DNA of 64,000 nt from the NCBI GenBank assembly GCA_905178155.1, contig CAJINV010000005.1:2945161-3009160 (forward strand). The letters run 5' to 3'. Shown piece after piece: positions 1 through 64,000 of the stretch. Origin of the DNA: Amoebophrya sp. A120 (Eukaryota; Protista; Dinoflagellata). The notes below the pieces were generated by a model. The model was given only the letters and a program-made list of their open reading frames with translations. It was not told the DNA's origin and did no database searches. The position numbers and the translations under genes were made by a program. Position 1 is the stretch's first letter. Every line of letters begins with the position of its first letter.

Positions 1-2030
1 GTTGGCCCTTTAGCACTTCGACCTCGTCGTGGAAATCACCGAGACCGTCCTTGATGGAAACGTGATCCTGCCGGACACGGATCAACTGCCGGTCGGAGCT
101 GTTGAAGTTTTTCTTGTATTGCATAAAAAGTCAGCTACACTACAGAAATCAATTGCTTTGCATTCTTGCACAACGGCGCTCCTGCGCCTGACGTGATGAA
201 CAACATTTTCTGCATGGAGTCCACCTCGTCTTGCTCCCACCACACAAAAACTACTACACAATCCAAAGAAAGATAGAAACAAAAGTTGTCACGTCAAAAT
301 AAGTAAGTAATTATACGCTGCGATCACAGTGGTGACTTTCTGGTTTTCCGATTGCACCTCGGCTAAAAAGGATTCCTTCTCCTTCAATTTCTGCTCCTTT
401 CCCCTCTCGATGTTTTTCTGCACGGCGTACTCCTCGCCGAGCTTGTTCAGCCTCTCGTCCTGCGATTTCATGCTCTGCACGGTTTGCTCCCACTGCTGGA
501 TTAGTCTTTGCCGTTCTTCGTGCAACCGCTTGTATCAACTGCAAAAATGTCTGGGTCTGGACGAAGGTCACAACTTGTAATGCTGTCTGTGGATTCTAAA
601 GAAATTTGTATTGCATGACCGGCAAGACGGGTCGGGTTTGTCCTGCGCGGAGAGGGCATTTCTCATGCGGTAGAGGTATCACAAAGCCCTCTAAAAATCT
701 GTGATGCTACGGCAAGTATTACAGACATCATGGCTCACCCAGAACGTGCATGACAAGTCGAGAAATCTTCCAGACCCAGACATTTTTGCATTTGATAGCT
801 TGAACTCCTCGGCAATTTTGTCCATCTCGATCTGTTGCGACTGCGTCGTCGTCACCTCCTCCTCCACTGCGGCCTTCTTCCCGTTGTTTTCGAGGGTGAG
901 CTTTTCAATCTCCAGGGTCAGCTCGCGGATCTTCTGGTCATCCTGTCGACGATACCTTTTTTTATTGTTTGTAGATTTAGAAGATTCTTGATTTGCAAGA
1001 ATATTGCATGTGTTATTGTGCACACGTGATGCGAAGAGCGCAAAAAAGACCGACTCCGACGTCGTGCTGGAATTATGACAAGCGACTTGTTGTACAAGTT
1101 CAAGTTGTACCTTTCCAGTGCGATTTCATCCTCTTCCTTCTGCCGTGCAGCCAGCGCCCACTGCTCCAATTCCTCTTGGTTCCAGTTCATTTCTAATTTG
1201 AATTGGTCCAACTTCTCGTTGCCCTTGAAAATGTCCGTCTGGATGGCGTTATGCATTGCAAACATGTCTGGGTCTGGAAGAGTTCCAACTTGTGATGCAG
1301 ACTCTGGACCTCCACACAAAAAATTGTATTGCATGAATATCAAGAGCTGCGCACTTCTTGCTTCTACGCAAATAGGCAATTCCTCATGCGGTGGAATAGG
1401 CATTATTAGGCCGGCGCGAATCTTGTAGTGCTTTTGCGTGCATTAGAAACCAATTGCGTGATCCAAAACATGCATGACGAAAAAGTGCCTTTTTCTAGAC
1501 CCAGACATATTTGCGGTTGATAGGTGTTCGCTCGGTCCTTGTAATCTTCAACCACACGCTTCAATCTGACGCATTCACCCTCGAGCCGACCTTTTTTTAA
1601 TGGTATACTGGTACTGCATTTCCCATGCATGAAGACTACTTTTACGCAATCGTGCATGACAAAAAAGAAACATACACGAAACCAACTTGTTCCAAATACC
1701 GACTTGCCGCACGGTCAACTGCCTTAAATGGTCTTCCGTTTCCATTTCTCGTCTTCTCGCGTCCACTAATTGCTGCGTCAACGTGACCTCCTGCTGCACG
1801 TTCTGCAAGTGCTCGGCCATCACCTTTACCCTCTCCGCGTTTTCCCCGATGTGAAAGTCCAACGTGCCCATCTCGCTTTCCGACGCCTTGATGTCCTTGT
1901 CGATCGCCTTCGCGGCATCGGAGGCGAAGGGAGGCAGCGCGTCGCCATCCTGCTCGTAGCCCAGAGCATCATACTCCTCCTCGACGGTGCCCACCGCCGG
2001 CGGCTCGGGATTCAACACCGGGTCCGCCAT
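1..2030 (-). CDS. CCDC39: Coiled-coil domain-containing protein 39 (FAP59, axonemal ruler); 3' end runs off the window; 5 introns seen
   Basis: Spliced translation MADPV...AEHLQNVQQEVTLTQQLVDARRREMETEDHLRQL...KLDQFKLEMNWNQEELEQWALAARQKEEDEIALERYRRQDDQKIRELTLEIEKLT...LHEERQRLIQQWEQTV matches the remembered CCDC39 N-terminal pattern. GT-AG introns at 1591-1699, 956-1110 and 99-316; TIR-element introns at 1250-1522 and 533-797. Confidence 0.9.
533..797. mobile_element. Introner-like TIR element, family A
   Basis: TATCAACTGCAAAAATGTCTGGGTCTGG...CCAGACCCAGACATTTTTGCATTTGATA with 5-bp direct repeat gcttg/gcttg. Removal gives EEFKRLHEERQ. Confidence 0.92.
1250..1522. mobile_element. Introner-like TIR element, family A
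   Basis: TATGCATTGCAAACATGTCTGGGTCTGGAAG...TTCTAGACCCAGACATATTTGCGGTTGATA; direct repeat ggcgt/ggtgt. Removal gives RAN[T/A]IQTDIFK. Confidence 0.88.
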
Positions 2031-2796
2031 TTTAATGGATTTCTCGAAGGTACCTAGGTCTCTTTGCGACGTCGCTTCGGGCAGGAACGAGTACGAGCTC
2101 CTCGCGGGCTACAACTGTCGCAGCTCGGAATTGGTTTTGCGTTGAGCCGTTTCGGGTCGCCTCTCGCTCCAAAAATATTCCGGGACTCGAGTTTAGTACT
2201 TACTACTGTAGGAAGCTCTAGTACCGCAAGCGGCCGTGCGGAGCACGCGACGGCACGCGGATGACCATTCTTATTGGAGTCTTCGACGTTTTGTTGCACC
2301 TATCCTATCTTCGAAAAGCCGGTCTCGTCGTCGAAAAAATTGCAATGCCGCCGCCGCCGCTTCGAGAGCACGACAAATTCAATCATGCACCTGTACTTTC
2401 ACCACCATATCATGCGGCTTTATTTCCCACATGATTTTCGTCGAAATCGACACGGGGCGAACCAAAGACTCACGAAGCAAGTGTTGCTCAACTGCACCGA
2501 CTCACACTCTCTTCGCTCAACTCTACTGCAGTGGACGTTCCTCTGTCACTTAAGAGGACCGCACCGCACAGCAATCACTCGCTCTTCTCCCTGAGACGGA
2601 AAAAAGAACAATGACGAAGAGTATATGAGCAATTCAAAACCTTTAAATATGGCTTGGAGCAAAGCACAGCGGACGAATTTTGGATTCCTTTGCGAGGGCA
2701 GTGTCCCAGAACTATACACTTTCTTGATGCGGCGCACGTACGAAACTTGAATTGATTCAAAGCCGTGTGAAAAGTTTTCATTCACAAAAAGCAAAC

Positions 2797-5972: not shown

Positions 5973-8900
5973 TCACCCAGAGGACCCACTGTCGCTTGAG
6001 CTCGAGCTCCCGCTATCGGAGGATTGACTGGAGGAGCTGCTCGACGCCTGCTGCTGTTGGCGTCGTCTCTTCGCGGTTTTGCCCCTCTCTGTGGACGACA
6101 GTTGCTGCCGAGGTTTTTTCTGCGGCGGTGCATTGTTAGACCCCGTTTTGGTGGTCGCTGGTCGTTTCTGCGCTGGGGGTGCGGTAGAGGGGGCCTGGGA
6201 GTGTTTGGATCGATAATGACAGCATTTCACTTTGCACTCTTCCTTTGAGAAAAAACAATGTAGTGCAAGCTCCTTAGACAAAACATAATTTGTCAGGCGA
6301 GCTTGAAATGCTCGCCCTCGTCCTGTCGTTGGTTTCCTGAATGTTAACTGTCTGCGCTGGAATGCATTTAGAGCCAGGCTTTTCGAGCGACGCAACACCA
6401 CCCGTTTTAGCAGTGGAGGCAAGCTCAATGTGGGACAAGGAATAGCACGGTTTAGGTCTCTGCGAAGCCACGCGGTGACAAGGAAAGCGGCCAGGGCTAC
6501 AACAGGCACGACTGAAATAAGATTTTCACATTTACCTCTTTCGCCGTCCTGCCCGTAATATTCCTCGCATTTTCTTCGCGGGCACTGGTCCGGTCTTCCC
6601 GCGCGTTCCCTCCCCGCGCACCGCCCTCTCGTGTGCGGATCTCCCTCTCAGACTTCCCTGCATTTATTTCTCGGTCCCGTCCGGCAGTCCCGCGGGCGGA
6701 CCGCTGTGGCTCGGCCGTTCTGTTGTTCTCAGTTTTGTTCCTGTCCCGGTCCCCGGTCGCGCCTGTCCTCGTCGTCGTCGCTGCTGAATTCTTTGCTCCG
6801 GCAGCTGAATTCTTTGCGCCTGCATACTTATTCGTACCACTGTCGTGGTTGTTGTTTCTGTCCCTAGTCGTGCCCCCACTTCCTCGTGCCGGAGGCGAGG
6901 CTTCTTTCAGGTGGTCTCTGTCTTGCCCTCTGTCTTGTCCTCTTTCCCCCCGTCCCCTGCTCTTTTCCTTTTGCTCCACTGCCCTGGTTCTTGGTGCCTG
7001 TTTGTTGTAGTTCCCGTTCCTCGTGGTCGCGCGCCCTCGCTCACTCGCGGAGGACGAAAGGTCCGACTCCTCGTAGCTCTGCGGACTGGGTTTCCGCTTG
7101 TTGCCCCTCTGCTCCGCCCCCGGTCCTCGGGAGTTCACCTGCTTCCGCGTCACGGGCTCCTCGCGGGCGGTGGTGCGGGTCTTGTTCCCTCCCCGGGTCG
7201 TAGTAGTTCTCTGCTCGAAATTTTTCGACCGACTGTCCGCTCGACTCTGCTGTTTCTGTGCAGTTCCGGAGGTCGTCGGGCCATTTTTGGTGGACGTGGT
7301 TGTGGTGTTGAGAGCTTTATTGTGGCCCCGCCCTTGGTGTTGATGTTCCTTGTCCTGCTGATGTGTCGAGGTTTTGATGTTAGCTCCTGATCTGTTGTTA
7401 CTCGCTTTATTCGTCTCTACGAGGGGCTCAGAAGCAGTATTTTTCGTTTTTTTGTTCACTGCAGCCACGGTGCTCGATACCGGTTTGTGGTTGTCCAAAG
7501 CGTTTTTCTTGCCCCCACCAGTTGTCGTGCCTCTTTGACTCTGCACGACCCGCGGCCCCCGCTCCCTCATTTCCGAGCTCTTGCTCTTACTGCTGCTCGG
7601 CGAACTGCTATCCAGGCTGCTGGCCGAACGGTCGGACGGAATCTATGCAAGAAAAAAACTGTGTAAGTGTAGCTCTGTAATGCAAAACATGCAACAGAGT
7701 TACGCCTGTCATGCCAGACAGCCATGAAGTCGTCTTCTCGTGTGTGTTTTCCCTTACAAGCCACGCGTGACAGGTTTACTCAGTGATGTAGAGCAAATTT
7801 GTGATGCTGTCAGCCGAAGATAGTTACACTAACACAGTTTTTTTCCTGGATAGAATCTCAATCTCCTTCACGACTGGAATATAATTCGCGGATGAAACAA
7901 CTACTCCTGCTGCCCGGCCGGCGCTTCTCGCCTGCTTCGCACTCCGGGTCGTGAGTTTCATCTTCGTTTCGTTTCCCGCTGCGGGTCCATTCGTTGTGGT
8001 GACTTTCATGCCATCATTTCTACTGCTTTCGCCGTCGCTTATTGCAAGGAAAAATCCCCCCTCCCCATATTGACGAAGCACGTTTTCGAAGATTTGTGTT
8101 GCTGATTTGAGACCACAAATCGTGCCTGTGTTGGAAGAAAACAACTCCACAGGCTCCACCGCATTATGCAGGCGGTTTGTCATGCTGTTGGGCCTATGGT
8201 GTGGACATTTGTAGTGCTAGGCGCCTAGGTCAAAACCTCTCTACTCAGGCTTGATATGGGTCTGCAGTCCTCTCCAGCAAGACAAATCTCATCTGTGTAC
8301 GCAAATCCAGCATCAGAAACTTCGTTTTGATATGGGGAGGGGGGATTTTTCCTTTTCATATCGCTCCTGTGGTCTTCAATGTCCCTACTCGTCTTCAAGT
8401 TCAAATGATTCTTCAACTCCCGCTGCTCTCGCTCCGCCGCCCGCCGCGCAGCACCATTCGGATTGGGCGAGAGGATGAACCCGCTGTTTCTACTATCCTT
8501 GTTCCCAGTTGTGGTACCACCCCCAGCACCTCGTCGTGTTACGATCGTCGTATTTGTTGTTCCTACTTCACGCTCTACTCCCTCCCGTTTCAGCGGCGTG
8601 CCCCCGCGGCTCGGCCCGCGGGTAATCAACGTCGGAATGCCGCCGGCGCGGAGTCGCTGGAAATCCTCCTCCGGAGAGGAGGTCACCGCCCGGCGCAGAT
8701 TCACCGCCGGGTGCATGTCGTTGCTCAGATTCGGGGACACACGCTTGTCGTTCGAGATGCGCGCCATGCGGTCCCGCTTCGAGAGGAGCACGACCTTTTG
8801 CTGCTTGTTGTCTTCCTGTTCGTTCTGCTGCCGGATGTGGATCGCAGGCACCAGGGTCACCCTGATTTTTTTGCATATCAGTTCCAGTCGTGAGGAATTT

Positions 8901-22200: not shown

Positions 22201-23135
22201 TTGGAGTTCACTTTTGGCCATCAAAAGTGAGCACTTTTTGTGAGGATACGTCACCACTTCTAAAGGATACCGAAAAAGGTCGCTAGAAGTAGACAAGAAA
22301 GCAGCAATTTGTAATGCGGACAAGCTGCAAATAAAAGCAGTACTAGAACGAGAGGGGTCTAGTAGAATAGTGCAGCCTAGCTTCGCGGCTGGCCAGCGAA
22401 CGTTGTCACCCGACGACGAGTGACCATCAAAATTTTTTTTTTGAAAAAAAAATCTAAAAAAATCAAGAGAAAATCGGGACGGGGGTGCCATCTGAGGTCG
22501 CCCAGCTCAACAAATGCTGGCTCAGCATGACAAGTTTCTCAGCTCCTAGGTGTTCTCTATTCTGCATGACAAACTGCGCTTCTGCATCACAGAGAAACGG
22601 AGCTCTTGGGTAACGTGCATGACAGATTTAAGAGTCATGCCGAACAAGCATGACAAGCATGAATTCTTCCAGACCCAGACATTTTTACATTTGATAGACT
22701 CCCGGGCGACCGCGACCGGGAAGTGGAGGAAGCTTTAGACGCCGCCTTGGACGCGGGTCTCACGGCAACACGACGCGCCTGCGGTTTTGCGTCCTTCGCA
22801 GGACGAGCAGCTCCCTTCGAAGTAGCTTGTGGCTTCGTCGTGGAGGAGGTCTCTTGCGCAGCTGCGCTGGGTTTTGAAGTAGATTCTCCGGGCCCTCGCA
22901 CCTTCGGCGGGATCATGGGACTGCCCTCCGCGGCCTTGCGCCGCACCTCCGCCACCACCGCCAGCAGGCCGCGGGCGCCCGGACCGAGCGGACTAGATTT
23001 CGCTGGTGGTGGCCCGGGGGCGGAAGAGGCAGCACTAACAACGAGGCCCTTGTTCTCGCCACCGGTTGTTGTACCTGCCGGCGTCGTCGCCCCCTTCTGC
23101 GCCGCGAGCGCGCTGCGAAACTTGTCGGCTAGCAT
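10214..23135 (-). CDS. Very large (about 3400 aa if one gene) low-complexity, probably disordered protein; 6.6-kb terminal exon
   Basis: The 2201-aa ORF joins upstream ORFs in frame across TIR elements 16839-17089, 17369-17676, 21308-21586 and 21628-22696 and GT-AG intron 18784-19086. The junction near 19289-19608 is not resolved, so two genes are possible. Confidence 0.65.
16839..17089. mobile_element. Introner-like TIR element, family A
   Basis: 30-bp perfect TIR TATCAAATGTAAAAATGTCTGGGTCTGGAA; direct repeat gccgc/gccgc. Confidence 0.95.
17369..17676. mobile_element. Introner-like TIR element, family B
   Basis: TATCGGAAGGAAAAATCCCCCCTCCCCATATC...GATATGGGGAGGGGGGATTTTTCCTTTTGATA; direct repeat cgtcg/cgtcg. 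Confidence 0.93.
19289..19608. mobile_element. Decayed TIR element or intron
   Basis: Imperfect inverted ends (TGTTGTCCCAGAAG...TGTGATG versus TGTGGTCCCGGGAG...TGTGATG) between two coding segments; no clean direct repeat. Confidence 0.45.
21308..21586. mobile_element. Introner-like TIR element, family C
   Basis: TATCCTGAGTAAAAACGTACCCACACCAGAGT...ACTCTGGTGTGGGTACGCTTTTACTCAGGATA; direct repeat tcccg/tcccg. Confidence 0.94.
21628..22696. mobile_element. Introner-like TIR element, family A (252-bp subfamily), carrying a nested insertion
   Basis: Perfect family A TIRs; direct repeat gactc/gactc. Length 1069 minus 811 (insert) minus 6 (insert duplication) equals 252, the same as the copies at 41849 and 51191. 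Confidence 0.93.
21700..22510. mobile_element. Non-autonomous foldback/MITE-like element nested in an introner
   Basis: TIR TTGAGCTGGGCG(A)CCTCAGATGG at both ends; target duplication caaatg at 21694-21699 and 22511-22516; further internal inverted repeats. Confidence 0.88.
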
Positions 23136-45852: not shown

Positions 45853-47835
45853 ATGGCCTCGCTCCGCCCAGCGGGGGCGACCTCGGAGCAGGAAAACCGC
45901 GCCGCCGACCTCGATCGAAGCCGGACGGCGGTGAGAGAGAAACTGCTGAAGGACTTGCTCAGCTCGGACGAGGACAAAGCCGGCCCTTCCCCGGCGGCCG
46001 CGCATAAGAACGCGGAGGCTTCCGAGCAGCTGGACTCCCGTTCCGCAGCCGGGCCGCACCGCGAGCACGACTGCGACCCCGGCAACCCTTGTCCCCCAGC
46101 TTCGAGCAGTGCGTGCCCCTCGGGAAAAACACCTACGTCGCGGCTCCCGAACGAAGGCGAACTATCTTCGTCCTCACGATCAGAGAAGTCGCAACCCGCC
46201 GGGGTTCCTCCCCCGGCCGCAATCGCCGACCGGCTCGAAGCCGCGCTCTTTGAGCAGAATCCCGGCAGCGCCTACCTCCCCCGTGTATCAAGGTGAAACG
46301 TGCCCGGCCCCCGGAAGTCGGGCATTTTTCTGAAATACAAAGTTTTTCAATGGATCTTTTCTTGCGGGAGACGACCATCAGTCTGCCCGATGTAGATTCT
46401 AGGCGAGCAGAGTATCTTCTGCATGATAAGCCCGGCTGTTGCCGGATTTTTATATTTTTTGCATAGACAGACTCTTGCTCTGCTGTATCGAAAACTTGTG
46501 TAGATGCTGCATGCAACATAACAAGTGTCCCCATTGGAAAGCTTTGCGATGTTGTTTCGCGTTCGGGGGTAGAGGCGTTTCTCAATGCCATAGCGTGCGC
46601 GCGAAGTCCTCGCGGGATTGCGCCAGCCGCACCTGCAGCACGTCCGGAAGCAGCTGTTGTCAGGCGCGGTCGATCCAGCCGTGGTGGCCGGTTGGGACGC
46701 GAAGAAATTTTGGAATCCGCAAAAGCGGCGCGCGGGGGCGGGGAAAGTGAACGGCAGCGAAGCAACGAGCGGTAGCGAGTCTTCTCCGGATCTTGTTCGG
46801 GAAGCGAATCGAAGTCGCGAAGAGAATCGAAGTGGAAACCCTAGAGTCGATTCATCCGCAGAGGACCGCAGCGGGGGGACGAGCGGCAGGCAGCAAGAGG
46901 ACCACGCCAATCCGAAAGGGAGTGCGGTCGACGGGGAAAGCGACAAGAAAGCGCAGCAGAAGCAAGAAAGCCGGGCGCAGAAGAAGCGGAAGCACATTCA
47001 GGATAGCTTTCCGCACTTCGACCCCAACTTGGCCTGTGAACAGTGCGAAACTATCGGATATCAACCGCATGCGAAAACTTTACTTCTTTATTAGGTGGCC
47101 TGCAGAGAACTACATGACGCGCTGCTCGTTTCAAAAATCACTTTGCAAGCGAGCATTTTTATGCTATGGGGGCAACATCCATGTATTGATTCGTTATTCG
47201 TCGTATGGTCTTTCAGATTCACGAAGTGGTTTTTTATTTTTTGTGCATACCGACGTCCGCTACGCGATTCTACGAGACACGTGGATGTGGCCGCGGTGTG
47301 GCGGTTATCAAATGCAAAAGTGTCTGGGTCTGGAAGGTTGCAAGGTTTGTCATGCTAGTCTGGCATGACTCTGCACTCTGTATTGCGTGGCCACCAAGAG
47401 GCCCGCTTGCCTGTCATGCAAGAGCGCAGTTTCTCATGCGAAATACGCAGCACAAGAGCACGAAAAAACTTGTCATGCTTGGCGGTGCATTACAGGGCAC
47501 TTACTTTTCACGGACTTGCATCATAAGTTTCCAGACCCAGACAGATTTGCATTTGATAGCGGCAGAGGCGGAATGATGTCTGCAGACACTGGGAGGACAC
47601 TTATCATTCGGGAAATACTAGATTGATATCCTGTTTGTGAAGATGCAGAGGTATGAGAACGCGGAGAGCCTCGGGCGAGTTGACTGTGCCCATATCGCAT
47701 GGCTTATGCTCAGGTTTAGTTTGCATTCGTTTTTGCATCACAAACATGATTAAATCTTGTATGTTTTGCCGAATAACGTTAATGCTGTATTGCGAAGCTT
47801 GTCAGCACGAGGGCGTGCATCACAGTTTTGCGTAA
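45853..47835 (+). CDS. Divergent TFIIS-like protein: central domain plus C-terminal Zn ribbon
   Basis: After removing four TIR introns: AIADRLEAALFEQNPGSAYLPRAREVLAGLRQPHLQHVRKQLLSGAVDPAVVAGW (TFIIS central-domain-like) and LACEQCET.DVRY...SADTGRTLMLYCEACQH (Zn ribbon). Confidence 0.7.
46286..46592. mobile_element. Introner-like TIR element (diverged, C-like)
   Basis: TATCAAGGTGAAACG..CCCCCG versus CGGGGG..CGTTTCTCAATGCCATA; direct repeat ccgtg/gcgtg; removal restores the frame. Confidence 0.8.
47059..47249. mobile_element. Decayed introner-like intron
   Basis: TATCA...GCATA ends; removing the element plus 5 nt restores the Zn-ribbon frame; direct repeat only 2/5. Confidence 0.5.
47306..47558. 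mobile_element. Introner-like TIR element, family A
   Basis: TATCAAATGCAAAAGTGTCTGGGTCTGGAA...TTCCAGACCCAGACAGATTTGCATTTGATA; direct repeat gcggt/gcggc. Confidence 0.92.
47602..47775. mobile_element. Older introner-like TIR element
   Basis: TATCATTCGGGAAATACTAGATTGATATCCTGTTTGTGA versus reverse complement TATTCGGCAAAACATACAAGATTTAATCATGTTTGTGA; direct repeat acact/acgtt. Removal gives RTLMLYCEAC. Confidence 0.7.
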
Positions 47836-50109: not shown

Positions 50110-53100
50110 ATGATTGATTCTTCCCCGCGCAACATGAGCTACGATGCAGATGATGACGATGTCGTTTACAACGACGACAAGGATCTCGAGGCGGCTTTTA
50201 CGGTGGCGGAACAAGAAGACGGCTCTGATATAACCTCGTCCAGCCGGCATCTGAAGTCCCTCGTGGAGGAGGACATTTTTTCCCAGACGCAGGTAACCGC
50301 CGCCCGGCGCAAGAAGCTCGCCCTGGAGTGGAGCCACCTCTCGTTCAATGTCAAGGGCCGGCGCATTCTGCACGACTGCTACGGGAAGGTCTACCCCGGC
50401 CAGGTGACCGCCCTGATCGGCCCCTCCGGGGCGGGCAAGAGCACGCTGATGAACCTGCTAGCGGCCCGGCAGGGCTGGGGACCACGGTTTCGGAGCGAGA
50501 GTCAAGAAGCGAAGAGCAAAATTTTTGCAGGATCATCCGGAATAAAGCAAGCCGACCAGGAACAAACAAAAGTACTATCCACTTTCGCGGAGCCGGAAAA
50601 AGAAAAGCGGCTGAAGCAGCAGCTTCTCGTTCATCCGGGCGATGATGAAATGAATGGCGCTGAAGTAGAAGAGGAGTCCGAGTCACAGGACCCGGATCCT
50701 GAGGGCGACGAGGACGAAAACGAAGATGATAAAGATTTTGATATCAAGATGGATCTGGGAACTACCAAGAAACGACAAGCAACGACCACCAGCAGAACCA
50801 GTAGCTCTAGAAGTACTCGTTCCACGAAGATCACCACCGGCATTCTTCCCGGGGCGCAGATCCTGTACGGGCGCAAGCCGGTGAGCTTTGAGGAGCTAAA
50901 GTCCTCGGTGGGGTACGTGATGCAGCAGGAGGCGCTGATGGAGATTATCATGCAGAAACAAGCAGGCAAGGCATATTTGTGACCCAGAAAGGAGTTAACA
51001 GGCAAAATGAGCCCATAGCAGGATCCTGTTTAGGATGCGCAGTGCAGATTTTTCTGTGTATTAATTTTTGCATGACAACCATGCCCTGTGCCTACTTTTT
51101 TCTGTGCGATAGAGACGGAGACCGTCGAAGAACAAATCCGGTTCGCGGCGGCGTTGCGGACCCCCCTGCTGAACGTGCCGCCGAATGCGGTATCAAATGC
51201 AAAAGTGTCTGGCTCTGGAAACTTGTGATGCTGGGTGGCGTATCATGAGGAGGCCACAAGTTCTGGCTCAGCATGACAAGTTGCTGAGCTTCTAGGTGTT
51301 GCCTATTCTGCATGACAAACTGCGTTTCTGCATGACAGAAAAATGGCGCTCTTGGGTAACGTGCGTGACAGATTTGAGAGTCATGCCAGACAAGCATGGC
51401 AAACATGCACGCTTCCAGACCCAGACATTTTTACATTTGATATGCGGTGAAGCGGAGCAACTGCAAAAAAACCCGGTACTCCGAGGAAAACGCGGAAAAC
51501 GTGCTCGAAACCCTGGGGCTGCAGAGCGCGCGCGCCACGAGGACCGGTGCGCTCTCCGGGGGGCAGAAGAAGCGGGTCTCCGTGGGCGTGGAGTTGGTCA
51601 CGAGACCGGCGATTGTCTTTCTAGACGAACCCTCCACGGGCTTGGACAGCTACAGCACGCTCCGGCTCTTCTCTATCAAATGCAAATATGTCTGGATCTG
51701 GCAAGGGTGAACCTGTATTGCGTGTTTCGCATTCCTAAAAAATCTGTATGGCATAAGCAGCAGATAAAGCACCACACTTTCGTCATGCAAAAATGCACAC
51801 TCAGTCATGGCCACTAAGCACTACAAGTTTCAAGACCCAGACATATTTGCATTTGATATTCTCCCACCTGCGCCAGTACGCGGTGGAGCAGAACGCGATC
51901 GTATCGTGAGAAAAAAATGTTACAGTTACACGTTTGTTGGAGTTTCTGCAACACAAATTTTCTCTGTGTGGCAGAGAGAACTTGGAATGCGAAGATCATA
52001 AAGGGAAAACAGGAAGGAAACGAGGCTCCCAAGCATTTCCTGCATGAGAAAGGTTGTCTGTGTTGCCGCTCTTGCAACACAATGTGTAACTGTAACACTT
52101 TTTTCTTGCGATAGATCGTGGTGTGCACGGTGCACCAACCGAGCTCGGAGGTTTTTGACTACTTCGACCGTGTGATCTGCATGCGACAGGGGGCGGTGCT
52201 GTTCCAGGGGTGGAACGGAAAGGCGGCAAGGGCGTATTTGCGCGAAAACGGGCTGTCCGCGACGTCGATGATGCAGCAGGAAGAACAGGGAGGGAACGAC
52301 AAGAGCGCTGCTCGAATGAACAGTAGTATGAGTCCGCCGGAAGACGTTTTATCCTGAGTAAAAACTACTACGTGGCCACTTCTTCCGCAGAGGTGGGACG
52401 CAGGTGATTTTGAACACTGCTAATGCGCATCCGAATGTTGAGAGGCATCTTTAGTCGTGTAGATCTGGCGTTACAGATGTAATGCTCTAGGTAAACAGGG
52501 TAGTATACGAGTTTTTGGGCTTTGATGTGAAGATCATGCCGCCTAATTTTTTTACCTGCACTACTACACAGCATGCGTAAAGAAACTTGTCAACATGCAA
52601 AGGCCCCAAAAGTTCTGGACTTGTCTTGCAGACACCACTGCCCGTTTTGACGATAGAGTCCTTGTGGGCGGGACGTTTTTACTCAGGAAAAACCAAACCG
52701 CGATCGCTATCCCTCCATTCGGCGGCCTTTGGACTCGGAGTCACCAGCAACACAAATTCTGTGCAAATAACAACAACTACCCGGCTAACGCAGCAAAAAA
52801 CTTTCCTGGACGAGATGCACGGGGCTGAGAAATCCAAGCTCGTCGTCTGGAACACAATCAAAGGGTTCCTCGACCCGATGGAATTCAACGGGGTCCGAGG
52901 GATTCCCGAGGGGGTGAACATCGCTTCCTGGCTCCTCCTCCTGGCGCAAATGGTCGACGAGGAGACCGCGATGCGTTATCGTGTTTAAAAAATTCGTCCC
53001 CATCCCATAGTTGTAATGCAAATCTGCATGCTGATAATGTTTCTCATGCGGAGCCCCATGAGAAGCATTGTCTAGTCGCGTTTTGGATTTTGTCATGCTC

Positions 53101-55191
53101 CAATCAGCATGATAGTGCTAGATCTGTGATGCTGCTGAACTACCTCTGAAACAGTACTACACTCCGAGTTCAGATTTGTCATGCAAAACAGTCAAAACTT
53201 GTGGACTTGTCCAGCCGATTTTTCCCCATCTTGACTCTGGGGCGGTGGGGACGTTTTTCCATAGGATATGCGTTTGGCGTTGCTCACGTCCCGTGTCTAC
53301 GAGCGCACCGAGCACCCGGTGCTACCGGTTGACCCAGAAACGGGTCGAAGTAAACACCTTCTCCCGATGCTGATGCGCAACAGCTTGTTCGGGGGGGAGC
53401 TGGACCTGTTCAGTGATGGGAACAATTCAACCACATCCGGCTCGACCCCCTCGTCGAACAAAAGCGGATCGGGGTTCGAACCGAGACCCAATCTCTTACT
53501 GGAGCAGACGGCCGAGATCAAGTGCAACCTCGACGTGGGGCTCGTGCCCAACCTGCTGCGCCAGAAGCATTTGAGCGAACAGTACCTGCGGAACTTAAGT
53601 GGCTATTTGGCGGCCGACGACATGGGCAAGCAGGAGGTGTATGACCAACCGCCACCGGCCGCGGGCGCAAACTTGGGAAATTTCTCCTGCCAGTTCCGCA
53701 TTCTGGCGTACCGGGAATTGACCCACCTGTGTCGCTCGCGCGGGATGCTGCTGGCGCGACTGCTGATTCCGGCGATTCAAATCTTTTTCTACGGGATCAT
53801 CTTTTTCCTGGCCGGCCGGCAGCTGCTGTCCGGGTCCGTGACCGGGTTTCCCGGGCTGGAGTGGCTCGGGGTGGCCCGAGAAGATAACATAACCGGGAAT
53901 AATAAACTCGAGACGGAGCAGCAGTGGAACAAAAAGTTGATGGAAGTGTTCGGCGCCACGGGGCAGCCGTTCTACACGTTGACCACGCAGTCGGCCGGGC
54001 AGTTGATCCTGACCATTCCGCGAGAGCGGGTGCTGTTTCTGCGGGAATACTCGTCCGGGATGTACAGCATCACGACCTACCTGTTGGCGAAGCTCAGCGT
54101 GGAGCTGCTGGTGATTTTCGCCCAGTCGGTGCTTCTGCTTCTCCTGCAGTGGATCCTGGTCGGGTTCGCCGCCGAACTGATTCCCGCGTTTTTCGGCCTG
54201 CTCCTCATGAACTCGCTGGCGTCCGGGTCTTTAGGGATGTTCATTTCCTGCCTGGTTGCCGACTACGGGTATCCTGGGTAAAAACGTACCCACACCAGAG
54301 TGTTAATGCAGATTTGCAAAAACAGGAAGACTTGTAATGCGCATCACATGAGAGCCATTTCCAATCGTGTTTTGGAATTTGTGATGCTGTGAACAGGATG
54401 AGCCGATGAATCTGTGATGCGGCTGCACTGGCTAACCTGCACTACACTGCAAAGTGCAACTTGTCAGGCGTGACTCACAAAACTCCTAGGTTTGTTGCAA
54501 AATCCCCATCCTGGCTCTGGTGTGGGTACGTTTTTCCTCAGGATAACGGGGAGGTTGCTCTCTACATCCAGCCCATTTTTTTCCTCACGCTCAGCTCCGC
54601 GTTGTCCGGCAATTTTCGGCCCATCACGGAGATTCCCTGGGCGCTGCGGTTATGCATTGCAAATATGTCTGGGTCTGGAAGGATGCAACGTTTGTCATGC
54701 ACATTTCGCATGACTCCTGGTCCTGACGTCTGTGATGCATGCCCTAGCATCACAGATTTCGCGAGGGCTACTTCATGCCTATACCGCATGAGAAACGCCC
54801 TCTCGGCGTGGCAAAAATTGGACCCGTTTTGCTGTTCATGCAATACAGATTTTTGTAGTATTCACATGCAGCATCACAAGTTACATGCCTCCAGACATCC
54901 AGGTATATTTGCACTGGATAGCAGTGGACGGGGTACATTTTCCCCACGGCGTTCATGACGAAGACGCTGGATTTCTTACTCTATCAAAACGTGGAAAACC
55001 AGCTGTGGCCGGGCGAAGTGAGTGACCAAGCCCGGGACGTGCTGATCGCGGCTCGGGACAAGAGATTCGAAAAAAGGGCGCTGTCCAGCGAGATTTTGCT
55101 CACGAACTTTTTCGGGCTGGCGGCACTCTTTGTTGGCTACCGGGTGCTGGCGGGGATCGTTCTCCGGGTAAACAGCAGGACGATGTACTGA
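50110..55191 (+). CDS. ABCG (White-family) half-transporter, paralog 1; 8 TIR-derived introns
   Basis: Walker A GPSGAGKST; Q-loop GYVMQ; signature LSGGQKKRVSVG; Walker B VFLDEPSTGLD; CTVHQP; membrane domain with ERVLFLREYSSGMY. Confidence 0.92.
50946..51111. mobile_element. Introner-like TIR element, family D
   Basis: TATCATGCAGAAACAAGCAGGCA...TGCCTACTTTTTTCTGTGCGATA; direct repeat gagat/gagac; related to 40730-40889. Confidence 0.85.
51191..51442. mobile_element. Introner-like TIR element, family A (252-bp subfamily)
   Basis: Family A TIRs; direct repeat tgcgg/tgcgg. Confidence 0.95.
51674..51858. mobile_element. Introner-like TIR element, family A (185-bp variant)
   Basis: TATCAAATGCAAATATGTCTGG...CCAGACATATTTGCATTTGATA; direct repeat ttctc/ttctc. 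Removal gives TLRLFSHLRQYA. Confidence 0.93.
51902..52113. mobile_element. Introner-like TIR element, family E
   Basis: TATCGTGAGAAAAAAATGTTACAGTTACAC...GTGTAACTGTAACACTTTTTTCTTGCGATA; direct repeat gatcg/gatcg. Confidence 0.92.
52350..52690. mobile_element. Family C element with damaged right end and no matching direct repeat
   Basis: TATCCTGAGTAAAAAC...GTTTTTACTCAGGAAA. Confidence 0.7.
52977..53268. mobile_element. Introner-like TIR element, family C
   Basis: TATCG..CGTCCCCA...TGGGGACGTTTTTCCATAGGATA; direct repeat tgcgt/tgcgt; body homologous to 61134-61412. Confidence 0.88.
54270..54545. mobile_element. Introner-like TIR element, family C
   Basis: TATCCTGGGTAAAAACGTACCCACACCAGAG...CTCTGGTGTGGGTACGTTTTTCCTCAGGATA; direct repeat acggg/acggg. 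Confidence 0.94.
54651..54920. mobile_element. Introner-like TIR element, family A
   Basis: TATGCATTGCAAATATGTCTGGGTCTGGAAG...ATATTTGCACTGGATA; direct repeat gcggt/gcagt. Confidence 0.88.
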
Positions 55192-56209: not shown

Positions 56210-59200
56210 ATGGAGGGCGGCACGCTGTCCTATCCGGATGGCGGGGACCACCCGAAATATTTCATTAACAAGTGCGCCGAAGAGCAGGCCGAGGTGGATG
56301 CAAAGCATTGCGAGGAAGAACGGGTCCAAACGCTCGAGCTGCTCACCCGGCGCAACCGCAGCAGCTCTTTGCGCGGGGTTTCTCTCGCATTAAGCACGGC
56401 GACTGCGGCGCAAAAGGGAGAAACTGCGGGGCCGCGAGGAGGACTTCTACCGGGCGGCAATATTGCACCGGCGCAGCAGCAGCAGGACGTCACTACACGA
56501 AGGAAAACGCCACATCAATCGCCCAGGACTGCTAGTCCGCCGCAGAGCAATCTTTTCGACATAGATCAAGACGATGGTGCTGTCGACCGATTGGAAAGTT
56601 TACGCAGGATCAGCGACGACTTGGTTCACCTCACGGGAGGAGCAGATGATGAACACGTCGGCGACCAGCTGCCGTTAATATTGCCTCCCCTTGCCATCGG
56701 GGACGAGGAAAGCGAAGACTCGGCTCTGCTTCGCTGGCTATGAAATGCAAAAGCATCGTACTAGTATAAATCGCATGACAAATTCCCTCAGCATGAAAAA
56801 TGGAATTTGTAATGCGGATTTAGGTTAAGATGGAGATTTGTAATGCATGATTGCGATTACTACGAGTGCGATACTTTTGCACAGGATACTGGCACCGGGC
56901 GAACAAATTGATGTTCGAATTTCGCAACATCTCCTTCGAAGCAGCTATCACGATGAAAAATCCCCCCTCCCCAAATCAAAACGAAGTTTCTGATGCTGGA
57001 TTTGCGTACACAAATCAGGTTTGTCTTGCTGGCGAGGATTTCAGGCCCATATGAAGCCTGAGTAGATAGGTTTTGGCCTAGGCGCTTAGCATGACAGACG
57101 TCTACGCTGTAGCTAAAACAGCATGACAAACCGGCTGTAGAATGCGGCGGAGCTTGTGGAGTTGCCTTCGTGCAACACAGAGACGATTTGTGGTCACAAA
57201 TCAGCAACGCAAATTTTCGAAAACGTGCCTTGTCAACATGGGGAGGGGGGATTTTTCCTCTCAATAGCAGCTGGCTCATCATCTTCCTCCGGAAAGAAAA
57301 CGTCAACGGCTGCAACCGGGATATCAAATGTAAAAATGTCTGGGTCTGGAAGAATCCAAGATTTGTGATGCAGGTTTTCCATGACCCATGAGGTCTGAAA
57401 TGCGAGACCCAGCATGACAGATTTTTTGAGGTCTCGATCATGCCTTTCCTGCATGAGAAACTCCCTCTCAACTTGGTCAAAAGCGGACAGCTTTTGGCAC
57501 TCACGCAACACAGATTTTTGCATCATTTAGATTTAGCATGACAAGTTCTAATCTTCCAGACCCAGACATTTTTGCAATCCATACGGGAACCGGAAAAGCA
57601 AAAAGCCGAAGAAACTCATCCTCGACAATTGCTTCGGGTGTTTCCGTATCAAATGTAAAAATGTCTGGGTCTGGAAACTTGTGATGCTGGGTGGCGTATC
57701 ATGAGGAAGCCATAAGTGCTGGCTCAGCATGACAAGTTTCTGAGCTTCTAGGTGTTGCCTATTCTGCATGACAAACTGCGTTTTTGCATGACAGGAAATT
57801 GGGGCTCTTGGGTAACCTGCATGACAGGTTTAAGAGTCATGCCAGAGAAGCATGACAAGTCGCGCATTCTTCCAGACCCAGACATTTTTACACTTGATAT
57901 TCCGGCCCGGCGAGGTGACCGCGTTGATCGGACCGTCGGGCGCGGGGAAGTCCAGTTTGATGAACCTGCTCGCCGTATGCCCAGTGAAAACTACGCTCCC
58001 GCCCCAGCAGATTTGTGATCTTGTGCAGATTATTCGCTGTATTTATTCTTGCGCGAATATAATTTGTATTGCGCCTGCTCGTCTCTATGAGATCGAGATG
58101 CATGATCGTGGCCGTGAAGTAGATTTGTGGCATTTGTAAAATACTGTATTAACAGGCGTTGCCGAAATTGTGAAGATGCGGATATCGTTTCTAATCACTA
58201 CAACTAAGACCGAAGTGGTCGTGCATGCGTCAGCACTTCTACTCTAGACTTCTGGATTTTTCATTTCTGTAGCAAGATGACTAGGTGCTGGTGGGGACGC
58301 TTTTCCTGAGGATACGCCGCGCGGGTAAAGGGGTTGGAAAAGCTCAGGAAAAACGCGGTTCGGTACGGCGAGCGCGGGGTCACCGGTCCGGAACTGCAGG
58401 ACTCGGTGGCGTACGTCCTGCAAGACGACGTTTTCTTTCCGCACCAGACGGTGCGGGAAACTTTGGATTTCTACGCCCGGCTCCGCCTGCCCCCCTCCAC
58501 CAGCTACGAGCAGAGACGGGAGAACGTGGAGGAGGTGTTGCGAACCTTGCAGTTGTCCCACATCGCGGATCAACTGGTCGGGGACCAGAGCCTGAAAACC
58601 ATCTCCGGCGGGGAGCGGAAGCGCGTGGCCGTCGGGTGCGAGCTGATCCGGCGCCCGACGGTGCTGATGCTGGATGAGCCGACGAGCGGGCTGGATTCGT
58701 TGTCCGCGTTGAAACTGCTGGTGTACCTGAAAGAGATCGCGGTGGCGCAGCACGCGATCATCGTCTGTACCCTTCATCAGCCGGAGGCGCAGGTTTGGGA
58801 CCAGGTGGACCGGGTGCTGTGCATGCGGGAAGGCCGAGTCTTGTTCCAGGGCTGGACGCGGGAGACCAGCGGGCTCGATCGGGGTCTCAGTCCGGCGGGG
58901 CGGGAAGATGAGACCGCTAAAGAACTTGCAAGTAGCCCGAATACAACGAGTGGTCAAAATGGAAGTAGTAGTCCTACAAGGACTTCGAGACGAGTAGCAG
59001 CTCTGGGACGAGCTATCATAGAAGTAGACACAGGAGCGCCGGGAATAAGTCCTGCGCCGTTTGGACGAGATAATCCATCTCCCACCAGTGGATCGCGCGG
59101 GCACACCAGCTCCGGTAGTGCAAAAAAGGATCTCAGCGTCATATGCAACTTCCTGCAGACGATCGGGCATCCAATGCCAGCTGGCTACGGCTGCAGCGAT

Positions 59201-62126
59201 TGGCTGGTTTATTTGGCACAGACAGTGAGCGATGCGGAGGCGGATTTCATTTGCGAGCAGACAGCGGCCGTGTTCGAAATTAGCTTCCCACCTGTAGATG
59301 AGGAGGAGGCGGGGATACCTTTGATTCCTCCACCCGATGACGGCGACGTTGCTGCCTTGAGTTCTCCGGAGCAGAGCCTCCACGGGCGCAAGAGTGCGGC
59401 GTCCGGGAGCACTAGTGCTTTTCGCGGCTCGCCTGTGAATGATTCGTCTGAGAAGGACTGGAAGATCAGCGTCACCAGCGGGCAGCCAAGAGTCTCCTCA
59501 GACCAGAACAACCGACACATCGAGACGACCCCGCAGTCTGTGCCTAGCAGTTACCCGGCTAGAGGCAGCAACGACGCGCTCCCAGGTGGAGCCAGGGGCT
59601 CCAATGTGCTGCACCTCCCACGACCGCGTTTTAACACGATAAAATCAGAAATTCACCACCCGACCGGGTCTCGATTGGTGCGAGCGCAGTCGACACTGTC
59701 GCAGGTGGAGTTGCAGCCAGTTAGGAATTTGATAAGAGCGGTAAGCTTGATCAAGGACAACAGGAAAGTTGGCTGCCCGTTGACCGCGCTGCAGCGGGCG
59801 CACGCACAAAGACCGCGAAATCGAAGGACGGGGTATAATCTCCACCATGAACAAGAGGTCTATCCGCGGGGACAAGGAGACACTAGCAGCCCAGAGACCG
59901 ATGAAGCAGATGAGAGTTCGAGTACCCATCTTCTGGCTGCGGTAAGACATGAAGGGTCTTCGGAGCTAAATGGGCACCGTGGGCAAGAAGAAGACAAATC
60001 CTATGTGCGCAAATCCCTGCCCCCGTTCTTCACAAATCAGTTTCCCGCGCTGCTTGCGCGCATCCTCCGGGAGGATTGGCGGCGAAAAACCCCGATGCTG
60101 ATGCGGTTTCTTTCCCCGGCGGTGCAAACGGCCATTATGGGCGCGGTGTTTTGGCAGATGGGCACGGACTTGTACAACGGCAGAACCGTAACGGGAGAGC
60201 AATTGCAAACAGAAGCAGACTTCGCGTCCGCGATCGTGAATTTGAACGGCGCGACGTTGAACACCTACACGGTGCTGCTCTTCACGGCCGCGGGCCAACA
60301 GGTGAGTTCTTTGGGCCGGGAACGGCCAATGTTCTTGCGGGAGTACACCAGCGGGATGTATTCTCTGTGGACCTACTTGCTGGTGCGGATGATCGCGGAA
60401 ATTGTCGTGATGGTATAATAGTCTTGATTTGCCCACCAACCTCACGTGAAAAAAATCGATTTTCATAAACTTAAGTCCGCTCGGGGGGAGGAGGTTTTGC
60501 GTTCTAACGCAGATGTTGTTGTCCACAGGCGCGGGGGTCAGCTATTCTTGATGTGCTGTACAACGACATCGCTAGGTGTTAAACAGGAACATTTTTGTAA
60601 ACAAATGAGCGGGACGAGCTGGGGCAACAAGCGTAAGTCTAAAATGTACACAGGACGAGCAGTCATCCAAGAACTACTTAATATAATTGCGTGCAACTAC
60701 ACAAATTCACTTTCATTATCACAGCCACTCCAAGTCGGCCTGATCTACATCATCCTCTACTTCACGCTGGGTCTCTATGGAAGCGTCAGAATCGAAATCG
60801 ACAAAGTCGAAAAATTTGTAATGCATAAGATCGATACCAGTTGGACCCAGGTCCTATAGTCGGCGCATGACAAATTTTCCCCGCGCCGGAAGCGAGTTTG
60901 TCATGCTGTTTAGGGCAAAAGAGCTCCCTGCTGTCATGCTAGTCAGCAGCCCAACACTTGACCCTTGCCAGGACTAGAATCCGCCTCCCTTGCATCCTCT
61001 GCAATAGAGTCGCTTTTTGTGTGGCATTTTATGCATTACAGATAATTTCGACTTTGTCAATTTCGATTCTGACACTTCCATAGTCTCGGCGCACACACCG
61101 CCCCCTGGTGGATCATGCTGTCCATGTTCCTGATATCATTTGTAAAAACGTCCCCACCCCAGAGTTGCAATGCAAATCTGCATGCTGAAAACGTTTCTCA
61201 TGCGGAGACACATGAGAAGCAGCCTCTAGTCGTGTTTTTGGATTTGTGGTGCTAGAATCAGCATGATGTGCTAGATCTGTGATGCTGCTGAACAAGCCAA
61301 ACATGATTACACTACGAGGCCAAACTTGTCATGCGCAACAGCAAAAGCTGACAGATTTGTCTAGCAGATTTTCTACCTTGACTCTGGTGTGGGGACGTTT
61401 TTACTCAGGATACCTGACCGGTCTTGCCGGCGGCTCCATCGGCCTCTTCCTCGCCTCCGCGACGGCCAACCTGCCCGGAACCGCGATCGTTTGGGCGCCG
61501 TTTGTGCTCACGACGATCCCCAACAGTTTTGCCAATCCGTTTCGCCCCATCTCGCAGATTCCGAAATTCATATCCTGGCTGCAGTGGCTCGTACCGATCC
61601 GCTTCGCGTATAACCTCCAGGGGTGGTTTTTGTTCTCCGAGCTGGGCAAGGATCTAAAATTCGCGGCAACGGATCCAGCCCGGTATCCGATGCAAATATG
61701 TCTGGGGCTGGAAGGATGCAACTTGTCACGCTAGTGCCTTCGGACTGTAAGTACATAAAATCTGTCTTGCATGCGAACTGCAAAAGAGATCCAGTTTTTG
61801 CTACGCGGAGAGGGCATTTTTCGTCCGGTATGGGCATATCGGAAAGCCCTCGCAGAATCTGGGATGCTAAAGGGCATGCAACACAGACATTATGAGCCGT
61901 GGGTAATATGCATGACAAGCCTGGCACTCATCCAGACCACCCAGACATACTTGCAATGCATACGCGGGCCGACATCGCGATTGCGGCGAGAGACTCCTTC
62001 TTCGAAAGTGAGTCCACTGTGTCGGATATCGGATTGTATCTAGGCGCGATTGTGGCCTTGCTGTTTGGCTTTCGGTTGTTCGCGGGCTCTTTTCTGCTGT
62101 GCAACAGCCAGAAAATGACGAGGTGA
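56210..62126 (+). CDS. ABCG (White-family) half-transporter, paralog 2; 8 TIR introns plus one GT-AG intron (60413-60724)
   Basis: Walker A GPSGAGKSS; AYVLQDD; ISGGERKRVAVG; LMLDEPTSGLD; CTLHQP; ERPMFLREYTSGMY. Start codon tentative. Confidence 0.92.
56739..56888. mobile_element. Introner-like TIR element, family F
   Basis: TATGAAATGCAAAAGCATCGTACTAGTA...TACGAGTGCGATACTTTTGCACAGGATA; direct repeat ctggc/ctggc. Confidence 0.85.
56946..57266. mobile_element. Introner-like TIR element, family B
   Basis: TATCACGATGAAAAATCCCCCCTCCCCA...TGGGGAGGGGGGATTTTTCCTCTCAATA; direct repeat gcagc/gcagc; reverse-complement homolog of 8040-8360. Confidence 0.92.
57322..57583. mobile_element. Introner-like TIR element, family A
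   Basis: Family A TIRs; direct repeat cggga/cggga. Confidence 0.92.
57647..57899. mobile_element. Introner-like TIR element, family A (252/253-bp subfamily)
   Basis: Family A TIRs; direct repeat ttccg/ttccg. Removal gives CFGCFRPGEVTALIGPSGAGKS. Confidence 0.95.
57976..58314. mobile_element. Introner-like TIR element, diverged family C
   Basis: TATGCCCAGTGAAAAC..CCCCAGCA...TGCTGGTGGGGACGCTTTTCCTGAGGATA; direct repeat cgccg/cgccg. Removal gives NLLAARVKG. Confidence 0.85.
60776..61082. mobile_element. Introner-like TIR element, family G (TIR about 50 bp)
   Basis: TATGGAAGCGTCAGAATCGAAATCGACAAAGTCGAAA...TTTCGACTTTGTCAATTTCGATTCTGACACTTCCATA; direct repeat gtctc/gtctc. Confidence 0.93.
61134..61412. 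mobile_element. Introner-like TIR element, family C
   Basis: TATCATTTGTAAAAACGTCCCCAC...GTGGGGACGTTTTTACTCAGGATA; direct repeat cctga/cctga. Confidence 0.92.
61684..61962. mobile_element. Introner-like TIR element, family A
   Basis: TATCCGATGCAAATATGTCTGGGGCTGGAAG...CCAGACATACTTGCAATGCATA; direct repeat cccgg/cgcgg. Confidence 0.87.
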
Positions 62127-62944
62127 AGAAGGTTTTTGGAGTCGAAGCGGAAGGTTTTGCGGATTTTGAATAAAACTCCTGCAGTTTGGTTTGCACGACA
62201 CTGTAATTTTTTTTGTGATCAGCTTGACGAGCGTACTGTTTAGAATCTCGTGAAGGGGAAATCGAGTAAAGGAGAAACAAGAAAAGGCGTGACTGTCTGA
62301 AGTGCCTTGAACTTCTAACACCATGCGCAGGAGTTAGAAGAAAAAAAGAGAGTCCGAGGAGCTGACAGCTGTAGCTTTAAATTTGTTCAGTGTGATCCTC
62401 CACCCGTGATATTTAGATACCCTTGGTCCGCAGGCACAGTAGAGATGAACGATCTTCAAATTCCCAGTTCACTTCTAAAGATCTGGCTCTCGATCGTGCA
62501 AAATTCCAGTTCAGTTTTAAAGATCTGACAACTGCAGTGCTATACGGCGAAAGCACCCTGATCGATGCCAAGAGATCTTCCGCGTTCTAAATCGGAAAGC
62601 GCGAGGATCTGTCGTTGGTGCAAGGTAACATTCCAAAGCCAAACGATCTAGATCACGAGGATCCGCGGACGATCTGTAAAAATATCCACGTTGATGGAGA
62701 TGTAAATATGGTCAAGTGGAAGATCATGTTGCTGTCTTTATGTTCTCGCAAACTACCATAGATTCATGATCTAAGGACGCACTGCAATTGGAAACAAAGG
62801 TCACCAAAACTTCGAAACACTCTTCAAAACTCCTTCACAATCACGCGCAAAACACAGGGACCCTTTGAATCGGATTTTCTTCCTGATTCAAACACTCTAC
62901 ACGGGACGTGATTTAGGTTTTATCTCCACACAAAAAAACACAAG

Positions 62945-64000
62945 ATGCCGAAGGCTGAGATGAAGGGCAAGAAGTCTGCTGCGCAGAAGAAGAAGCTGCC
63001 GCAGGCCCCGCTGGGCGCTCCGGTCATCAAGGGAAACAAGAAGAACCCCCTGATTGAGAAGAAGGCCCGCAACTACCGCATCGGTGGCGACATCCAGCCC
63101 AAGCGCAACCTGACCCGCTTCGTCAAATGGCCGCAGTACATCCGTTTGCAGCGCCAGAAGCGCATCTTCATGCAGCGCGCCAAGGTACAGGAGCGTGATG
63201 TGATGTGCTGTCTGGCATAATTTAAAAACACACATGTAGATTTGAACGCAAAGTTCTTTTGAGAGCAGATTTATATTTTTCTGCCTCGCATGGCGTGAAA
63301 TGCGTTTTGATGCATGACAGAGTGTGCCGCTCATGCTAAAACCGCAATACCAAACTTTCTATCCAGGTCCCGCCCAGCGTTGCTCAGTTCAACCACACCA
63401 TGGACAAGTCTCAGTTCACGCAGCTGCACCGTCTGTGCAAGAAGATCGCTCCGGAGACCAAGGCCGACAAGAAGCAGCGCCTCAAGGACATGGCTGGTAT
63501 TTACTTTACTATAGCTTATTTGAAGCATTACTTACTACTTGCGCGCATGAGCATAACAGAGAGAGATTTTGATGCCAGAAGGACTGCACGAGAAGCTTTT
63601 TTTTTCTGTCTCGAGCGCTATCAATTTGTACGCTCTTAAGTAGACATAGCGACGTGTTTTGGAATCTATATCCTCGTTCTATCTATGTACAACTACTATC
63701 CCAAAATTGCCCACAGGCAAGGACAAGGAGACCGAAAACAAGTGCCCGCCGACCATCAAGTTCGGTATCAACCACGTTACGGAACTGGTCGAGTCCAAGA
63801 AGGCCAAGCTCGTCATCATCTCCCACGATGTCGACCCGATTGAGCTCGTCGTGTGGCTCCCGGCGCTGTGCCGCAAGAAGAACGTGCCGTTCTGCATCAT
63901 CAAGTCCAAGTCCCGCCTCGGCCAGCTCGTCGGCCAGAAGACCTGCGCCGCCGCCTGCATCGTCAACGTCGCGAAGGAGGACCAGAAGGAACTGGTATCG
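62945..64000 (+). CDS. RPL7A: 60S ribosomal protein L7a (eL8); 3' end runs off the window
   Basis: [39 protein letters not shown]...KVPPSVAQF...[44 protein letters not shown] introns 63185-63366 and 63497-63716. Confidence 0.97.

Follow-up and report, generated by a model that had tools for sequence, protein, structure and literature searches.

Two questions about the dinoflagellate Amoebophrya sp. A120 are open in the field: what moves its roughly 30,000 introners, and how splicing copes with introns whose ends are arbitrary. The genome paper found neither a transposase nor a unifying signal. A stretch of 64,000 nucleotides of this genome (contig CAJINV010000005.1, positions 2,945,161 to 3,009,160 of the forward strand; hereafter the window) raises both questions, as its genes are densely interrupted by elements that start with TAT, end with ATA and are flanked by 5-bp duplications. 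A120 introners as published have inverted repeats starting with TAT-N7-AAA, a direct repeat of 3–5 nt at the borders, non-canonical splice sites and many families (PMC7789003; PMC12130899; all papers are cited for the sections drawn on here). A first-pass annotation of the window had pointed to one short motif, TGT(C/G/A)ATGC, that recurs inside different families and in canonical introns. Here we find that this motif is the core of a 13-bp site, RRYYTGTVWTGCW, of which almost every TAT...ATA introner with a 5-bp duplication contains about four copies, and we conclude that it is probably the subterminal binding site of one putative transposase, or of a DNA-binding partner, that moves all families, the copies in predicted GT-AG introns being likely relics.

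The recurrence of the motif is real. The window contains 89 exact copies on the two strands (48 with C, 26 with G and 15 with A at the variable position) and a single copy of the T variant, and the commonest 8-mer outside the satellite at 48–49 kb is GCATGACA. Of these copies, 74 lie inside 25 elements with terminal inverted repeats (TIRs) and target site duplications (TSDs). The remaining 15 comprise five in two D-type elements under the detection threshold (52478 and 53012–53177), one in an RNA-confirmed, non-canonical decayed element (41181), five in GT-AG introns (1654, 26453, 26516, 29630 and 63312), one in a predicted intron (19570) and three in unclassified non-coding DNA (32252, 47735 and 47817). 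The element at 41849–42100, credited earlier with six or seven copies, holds six exact ones (41890, 41921, 41954, 41974 and 42013 on the plus strand and 42060 on the minus strand) and one with a single mismatch. Family letters A–G are labels of this analysis and follow the first-pass annotation loosely.

A scan with the family-A TIR yielded 141 loci (642 kb once overlaps were removed), which we analysed together with the window. They contain 442 elements, of which 430, excluding 12 long or nested ones, were used for site counts. At least one exact copy is present in 415 of the 430 elements; of the 30 TIR groups in the sample, all 15 groups with at least two members and 11 of 15 singletons carry one, and the variable letter is T in only 7 of 1795 sites. 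The terminal profile of the 442 elements reads TAT(C/G)N6AAAA, after which come about 16 bases that differ by family, with A at positions 11–13 in 787–833 of 884 ends; the TAT start is imposed by the element search itself and is not independent evidence of the terminus. Of 303 pairs with strong TIRs, 241 have a duplication of exactly 5 bp and none has one of 6 bp; there is no sequence preference. The description of the TIRs as unrelated therefore holds for the inner 16 or so bases, but not for the shared start and the shared duplication. Left and right TIRs agree at 0.46–0.80 of positions 4–8 and at 0.95–0.96 of positions 11–13, the pattern of a spacer that is fixed in length and loose in sequence. 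An outward-facing copy of the site inside the TIR, at position 4, was considered and rejected, the resemblance being partial (10–62% of ends, 3 of 15 groups).

The interiors of the families have almost nothing else in common. When TIRs and sites are masked, the profiles built from 11 interior clusters find their own members, though in the two largest clusters often only some of them; cross-hits are scattered and reversed controls give no hits. The clusters are thus nearly unalignable to each other, indicating that one recent ancestral family, which the first-pass annotation had allowed for, does not explain the enrichment, and that the families share termini and site but little else, as expected of the shared cis-element it had postulated. 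Exact copies occur at 12.1 per kb in elements (0.28 in shuffles), 0.07 in exons (0.08) and, where intergenic DNA has no homology to elements, 0.13 (0.10); the rarity in exons noticed earlier is confirmed, with 18 copies in 256 kb, the same as in shuffles. Searches of viral contigs with the TIR pattern and with a pattern of TIR plus doublet gave no match. A motif-triplet pattern matched 97 prokaryotic and 2 viral stretches; none of these 99 loci has a blastn match to the elements, and the quarter that was inspected consists of unrelated tandem repeats.

The arrangement of the sites points to recognition on DNA. Specifically, inward-facing sites cluster 33–34, 41–45, 53–57, 63–66 and 72–77 bp from the element end, with a best period of 10.45–10.6 and a phase strength (R = 0.46) that none of 300 cluster-shift nulls attains; under stricter tests P is 0.012 (maximum over periods), and 0 of 2000 per-site-class nulls reach the observed value. 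Same-strand neighbouring sites have a spacing peak at 31–33 bp, or three helical turns. The core is conserved about as well as the TIR, with differences from consensus of 0.034 in the core, 0.117 in the other interior and 0.049 in TIR positions 15–30. Private changes are fewer in the core (0.020) than in the other interior (0.030), and the ratio is the same in exonic (0.61) and intergenic (0.62) copies. Furthermore, the 287 exonic elements are oriented 142/145 relative to the gene and present 605 sense and 607 antisense sites, one family, in which one strand has 4.3 sites more than the other, is oriented 13/14, and 66 intergenic element copies are as site-rich as exonic ones (17.1 and 17.2 per kb). 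The variable letter of opposed partner sites matches at chance (82 of 208 versus 85; 135 of 317 versus 123). Phasing, conservation, strand independence and lack of covariation together point to a protein on duplex DNA. Among the three explanations offered by the first-pass annotation, a transposase site, an intron-defining signal and a self-pairing module, the first fits best, given the helical phasing and the absence of strand bias.

Splicing of the elements can be followed between positions 24000 and 43400, where contigs from sequencing runs presumed to be of RNA give 14 usable junctions among the 15 of 22 listed (one being a repeat artefact), 11 of them GT-AG and 3 non-canonical; introns outside this interval are based on sequence, homology or prediction. 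All three non-canonical junctions (40730–40889, 41009–41256 and 41849–42100) remove exactly the element plus 5 nt, and alignment to the orthologue implies exact removal of two elements from CCDC39, whose nearest named relative is in Amoebophrya sp. A25 (75% identity over the whole protein). The cuts fall 1–2 nt before TAT and 4–3 nt after ATA, and the one-base option, in which the second base is T, fits the NT donors in Table S4 of PMC7789003. The element at 41009–41256 is still removed exactly despite a lost duplication and a single remaining site; decayed but exactly spliced, it is an intermediate on the route from transposon through non-canonical intron to GT-AG intron. The motif is probably not what directs splicing; the terminal hairpin and TAT likely serve as its guides. 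The raw-read runs X9 and X10 cover no exon of this interval; 91 reads of the presumed RNA run X9 match only the family-A TIR (41847–41880), with another flank and then TTGTCATGC, and derive from a copy of this element elsewhere in the genome or in a different organism.

The site also occurs in canonical introns. A gene finder written for this work and self-trained on the loci recovers exactly 9 of the 11 RNA-confirmed GT-AG introns, though these seeded its first round. In 150 predicted GT-AG introns without element homology, exact copies reach 1.20 per kb (0.18 in shuffles); the comparison with intergenic DNA, set as a test beforehand, finds 34 copies in the 28.3 kb of introns and 10 in the 78.9 kb of intergenic DNA, a ninefold enrichment (p = 3e-12). 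The 34 copies are spread over 25 of the 150 introns, and 118 have no site at all. Clear homology to elements is seen in a further 52 predicted GT-AG introns, which carry 9.1 exact copies per kb. Among the RNA-confirmed introns, one of 11 has an exact copy and two a matrix site, leaving nine without. The enrichment over intergenic DNA is real, but most canonical introns lack the site. Of the canonical introns named earlier as carriers, that at 26401–26609 is RNA-confirmed and that at 1591–1699 follows from the A25 alignment, those at 29611–29838 and in RPL7A are predictions only, and the supposed intron at 7676–7810 sits in a TIR element.

Several signs link the site-bearing canonical introns to elements. 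In particular, 31–33-bp doublets occur 5 times versus 0.34 expected, GTAT donors are found in 19 of 32 site-bearing introns versus 39 of 118 others (p = 0.008), and residual end repeats are found in 0.19 versus 0.04 of introns. A simulation of neutral decay at about 20% divergence reproduces site number and residual repeats. Judged from these sequence signs, the motif copies in about one-fifth of predicted GT-AG introns are likely relics of old elements, as the first-pass annotation had suggested, although simple neutral decay does not fit all of the data (see below). An ATA signal 7 to 5 nt before the acceptor is absent from canonical introns (1 of 150), their end-to-end pairing is not significant (p = 0.38), and the masked element profiles match only 1 of the 150 non-homologous introns. 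Canonical introns are rich in T at the 5′ end and in A at the 3′ end and lack a polypyrimidine tract, a polarity opposite to the AAAA/TTTT of the elements.

We propose that several protomers of the putative transposase would load on one helical face of the element ends and pair them, with a cut at TA and insertion with a 5-bp stagger, as by an integrase-like enzyme of the IS3EU/GingerRoot kind; in older elements the ends would be remodelled into canonical splice sites, giving rise to motif-bearing GT-AG introns. The TA...TA ends suggest an IS3EU/GingerRoot-like integrase. IS3EU and GingerRoot likewise have TA...TA termini and no target sequence preference, but their TSD is 6 bp and GingerRoot TIRs are 100–150 bp (PMC10045372, PMC6839031), as opposed to 5 bp and about 30 bp here, and these sections do not report them as introns; because a 6-bp TSD is lacking, we do not assign the introners to this group. 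Ginger2/TDD elements share a TSD of 4–5 bp (the sources differ, one giving 6 bp; PMC10045372, PMC6839031) but have TG...CA termini, which are not found here. Among 40 of the 58 rows of a PMC12130899 supplement is one for A120 family 38, which is 810 bp long and carries the entry ‘Ginger, 5-bp TSD, TA/TA termini’.

The layout of the site has counterparts in other transposons. In CACTA elements of the En/Spm type, TNPA binds subterminal repeats of about 12 bp, placed asymmetrically at both ends, which are the cis-determinant of non-autonomous copies (PMC2613891). The introners share a motif of this scale repeated asymmetrically inside both ends but lack the CACTA termini and the 3-bp TSD; moreover, in CACTA elements the TIR is conserved and the repeats vary by family, whereas here the repeat is constant and TIR positions 15–30 vary. 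In the ends of Tn7-like and CAST elements, multiple TnsB sites have a spacing that follows the DNA helix, as shown experimentally (PMC10201428); these elements are bacterial and have TG ends and a first site about 8 bp in, compared with 33–45 bp here, so that the likeness is an analogy only. As in subterminal transposase-binding repeats generally, the site is repeated, conserved, positioned at the ends and independent of the host transcription strand, while binding by the element's own protein and a requirement for the site in transposition are putative here.

Compared with A120 introners as published, the 442-element profile has the same start of TAT, seven variable bases and at least three A, the 5-bp duplication falls in the range of their border repeats, sizes are similar, and non-canonical ends recur in the three junctions described above. 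The introners themselves are thus published. The shared internal motif, its phasing and its presence in canonical introns were not found in searches of the literature on these introners or in the sections of PMC7789003 and PMC12130899 and their supplements drawn on here, figures (e.g. Fig. S25) and two PMC12130899 supplementary files aside, and the Roy 2023 preprint never mentions Amoebophrya; the shared, phased 13-bp site may be new.

A number of observations weigh against the proposal of a common transposase with relic copies in introns. A Pfam scan of 245 locus open reading frames (ORFs; about 0.7 Mb sampled) gave no transposase family at E ≤ 1e-8, a scan of 44 window ORFs gave no transposase, and none of 8 long elements has a long ORF. 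Farhat 2021 (PMC7789003) reports no transposase in A120 and argues against mobilisation by a general one; the shared site, by contrast, suggests that a single factor is common to the families. Bootstrapping places the period between 9.45 and 12.2, with 73% of replicates in 10–11, so that a period of 11 bp is also compatible, and outward-facing sites show no significant phasing (35 of 300 nulls reach it). Family A is over-represented because the loci were picked by its TIR; the 150 GT-AG introns are predictions, and at least one of them (41007–41233) is a non-canonical element that the gene finder mis-called as GT-AG. The decay simulation gives doublets at 0.04 versus 0.16 observed and retained 5′ AAA and 3′ TTT at 0.33 and 0.37 versus 0.03 and 0.09 observed, and sites in canonical introns have no inward polarity. 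Either the ends were actively remodelled, or the donors belong to unsampled families, or the host keeps the site.

The last of these leads to the main alternative, a host or domesticated DNA-binding protein on chromatin that the elements use and with which the cell marks introns for co-transcriptional splicing, selection keeping some of the sites. The DNA-level signature of the site also fits such a protein, intergenic DNA is at chance for the motif, U1 small nuclear RNA (snRNA) is reported missing (PMC7789003), and doublets and the YY context (27 of 34 core hits) outlast the traces of TIRs beyond the prediction of neutral decay. Yet most canonical introns have no site, RNA-confirmed (9 of 11) and predicted (118 of 150) alike, the decayed one-site element is still spliced exactly, and exonic copies are no better conserved than intergenic ones; we regard host marking as possible but rather unlikely. 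A combined version, in which the transposase or a domesticated derivative reads the helically phased code and was co-opted to mark introns on DNA, with host selection keeping the GT-AG doublets after loss of the TIRs, is less probable still, but it retains some weight since the three explanations of the misfit to simple decay are not separable here.

It is very unlikely that the motif acts in single-stranded RNA, as UGUVAUGC or its complement, by recruiting a splicing factor. The 34 copies in non-homologous GT-AG introns are 26 sense and 8 antisense (p = 0.003 against 1:1), but these introns are TGT-rich on the sense strand (619 versus 389), and against that background the excess is not significant (p = 0.15). 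Moreover, the exonic elements, including the strand-skewed family, are randomly oriented, and phasing would not be expected of single-stranded RNA. Neither a sense bias beyond composition, nor presence in most introns, nor a fixed distance to the splice site was found, and the intron-defining signal suggested earlier is, as a general RNA signal, not supported, with nine of 11 RNA-confirmed introns lacking the site.

Pairing of opposite-strand copies, which would fold the intron RNA or the excised single-stranded DNA and extend the TIR hairpin, is also highly improbable. The predicted fold of 41840–42110 does contain paired opposed sites (z of −7.9 with the TIR and −1.7 without), and some family interiors are structured in predicted folds (z −5.7 to −7.5). 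Nevertheless, the variable letter does not covary, and a 37-member family with nearly all sites on one strand has possible partners for only 4 of 163 sites and interiors that fold like shuffles; the self-pairing module proposed earlier is therefore not upheld. Finally, mere inheritance of the motif from one old ancestor or a mutational sink, without current function, is the least probable reading and already largely refuted: the ends and duplication common to all families make their common ancestry likely, but the core is 3.4-fold more conserved than the adjoining interior, the rest of the interiors cannot be aligned between clusters, the sites are phased, and T is excluded.

Table 1. Introners and site-bearing introns of the window, in window coordinates
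Feature	Position	Strand	Remarks
Family-A element in CCDC39	533..797		Duplication GCTTG; 3 exact sites
Family-A element in CCDC39	1250..1522		Exact removal implied by gap-free A25 orthologue alignment
GT-AG intron of CCDC39	1591..1699	-	One exact site (1654), no TIR; gap-free A25 orthologue alignment (homology)
Family-C TIR element	7644..7852		Duplication GAATC
Family-B element	8040..8360		
Family-A element	16839..17089		Duplication GCCGC
Family-B element	17369..17676		5 exact sites
Family-D element	21308..21586		
Family-A element with nested foreign TIR insertion (21713-22496)	21628..22696		
GT-AG intron, RNA-confirmed	26401..26609	-	Two exact sites (26453, 26516), no TIR
Predicted GT-AG intron	29611..29838	-	One site (29630); prediction only
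Family-E element	35181..35321		No exact internal site
Family-F element	40730..40889		Spliced as element + 5 nt, non-canonical ends
Decayed element, RNA-confirmed GT..CC intron	41009..41256	-	Retains TAT...ATA and a single site but no duplication; spliced as element + 5 nt
Family-A introner, 252 bp, 30-bp TIR	41849..42100		In GDA1/CD39 gene (minus strand); spliced as element + 5 nt
Family-A element	47306..47558		
Four elements in ABC-transporter gene	50946..52113		F 50946-51111, A 51191-51442, A 51674-51858, C 51902-52113
Second D-like element	start 52350		
Family-D element	52977..53268		Duplication TGCGT; 4 exact sites
Family-D and family-A elements	54270..54920		D 54270-54545, A 54651-54920
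Four elements	56739..57899		E 56739-56888, B 56946-57266, A 57322-57583, A 57647-57899
Three elements	60776..61962		G 60776-61082, D 61134-61412, A 61684-61962
Predicted GT-AG intron of RPL7A	63185..63366	+	One site (63312); prediction, reading frame consistent

Nested insertions occur in the window and at the loci. The foreign TIR element in a family-A introner (Table 1) has a 4-bp AAAT duplication, is present in a single copy in 706 kb and holds a second TIR pair (21958–22251); at locus L011 (1602–2033), nested in a family-G element, is a TAT...ATA element of about 111 bp that has a duplication of its own. Of 371 classified elements in the window and loci L001–L074, 287 fall in predicted exons, which make up 46% of bases, and this may reflect targeting or a detection bias. 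Elsewhere, a tandem satellite whose unit (AAGCGAGGCACTACTT and variants) measures about 16 bp occupies 48000–49200 between genes, and a G-run, an AT-rich block and a GC-rich block, with no Pfam hit, lie at 43500–46000 between minus-strand genes on the left and plus-strand genes on the right. Locus L012 (2635–6090) contains pieces of a C-5 cytosine DNA methylase gene.

With a common phased site, the roughly 2,000 reported families would become one mobilisation system. The site provides a DNA bait for the protein and a signature for locating the autonomous element, and it traces the route from transposon through non-canonical intron to ordinary GT-AG intron. If the combined version of host marking were true, intron definition would take place partly on DNA, in an organism reported to be without U1 snRNA.

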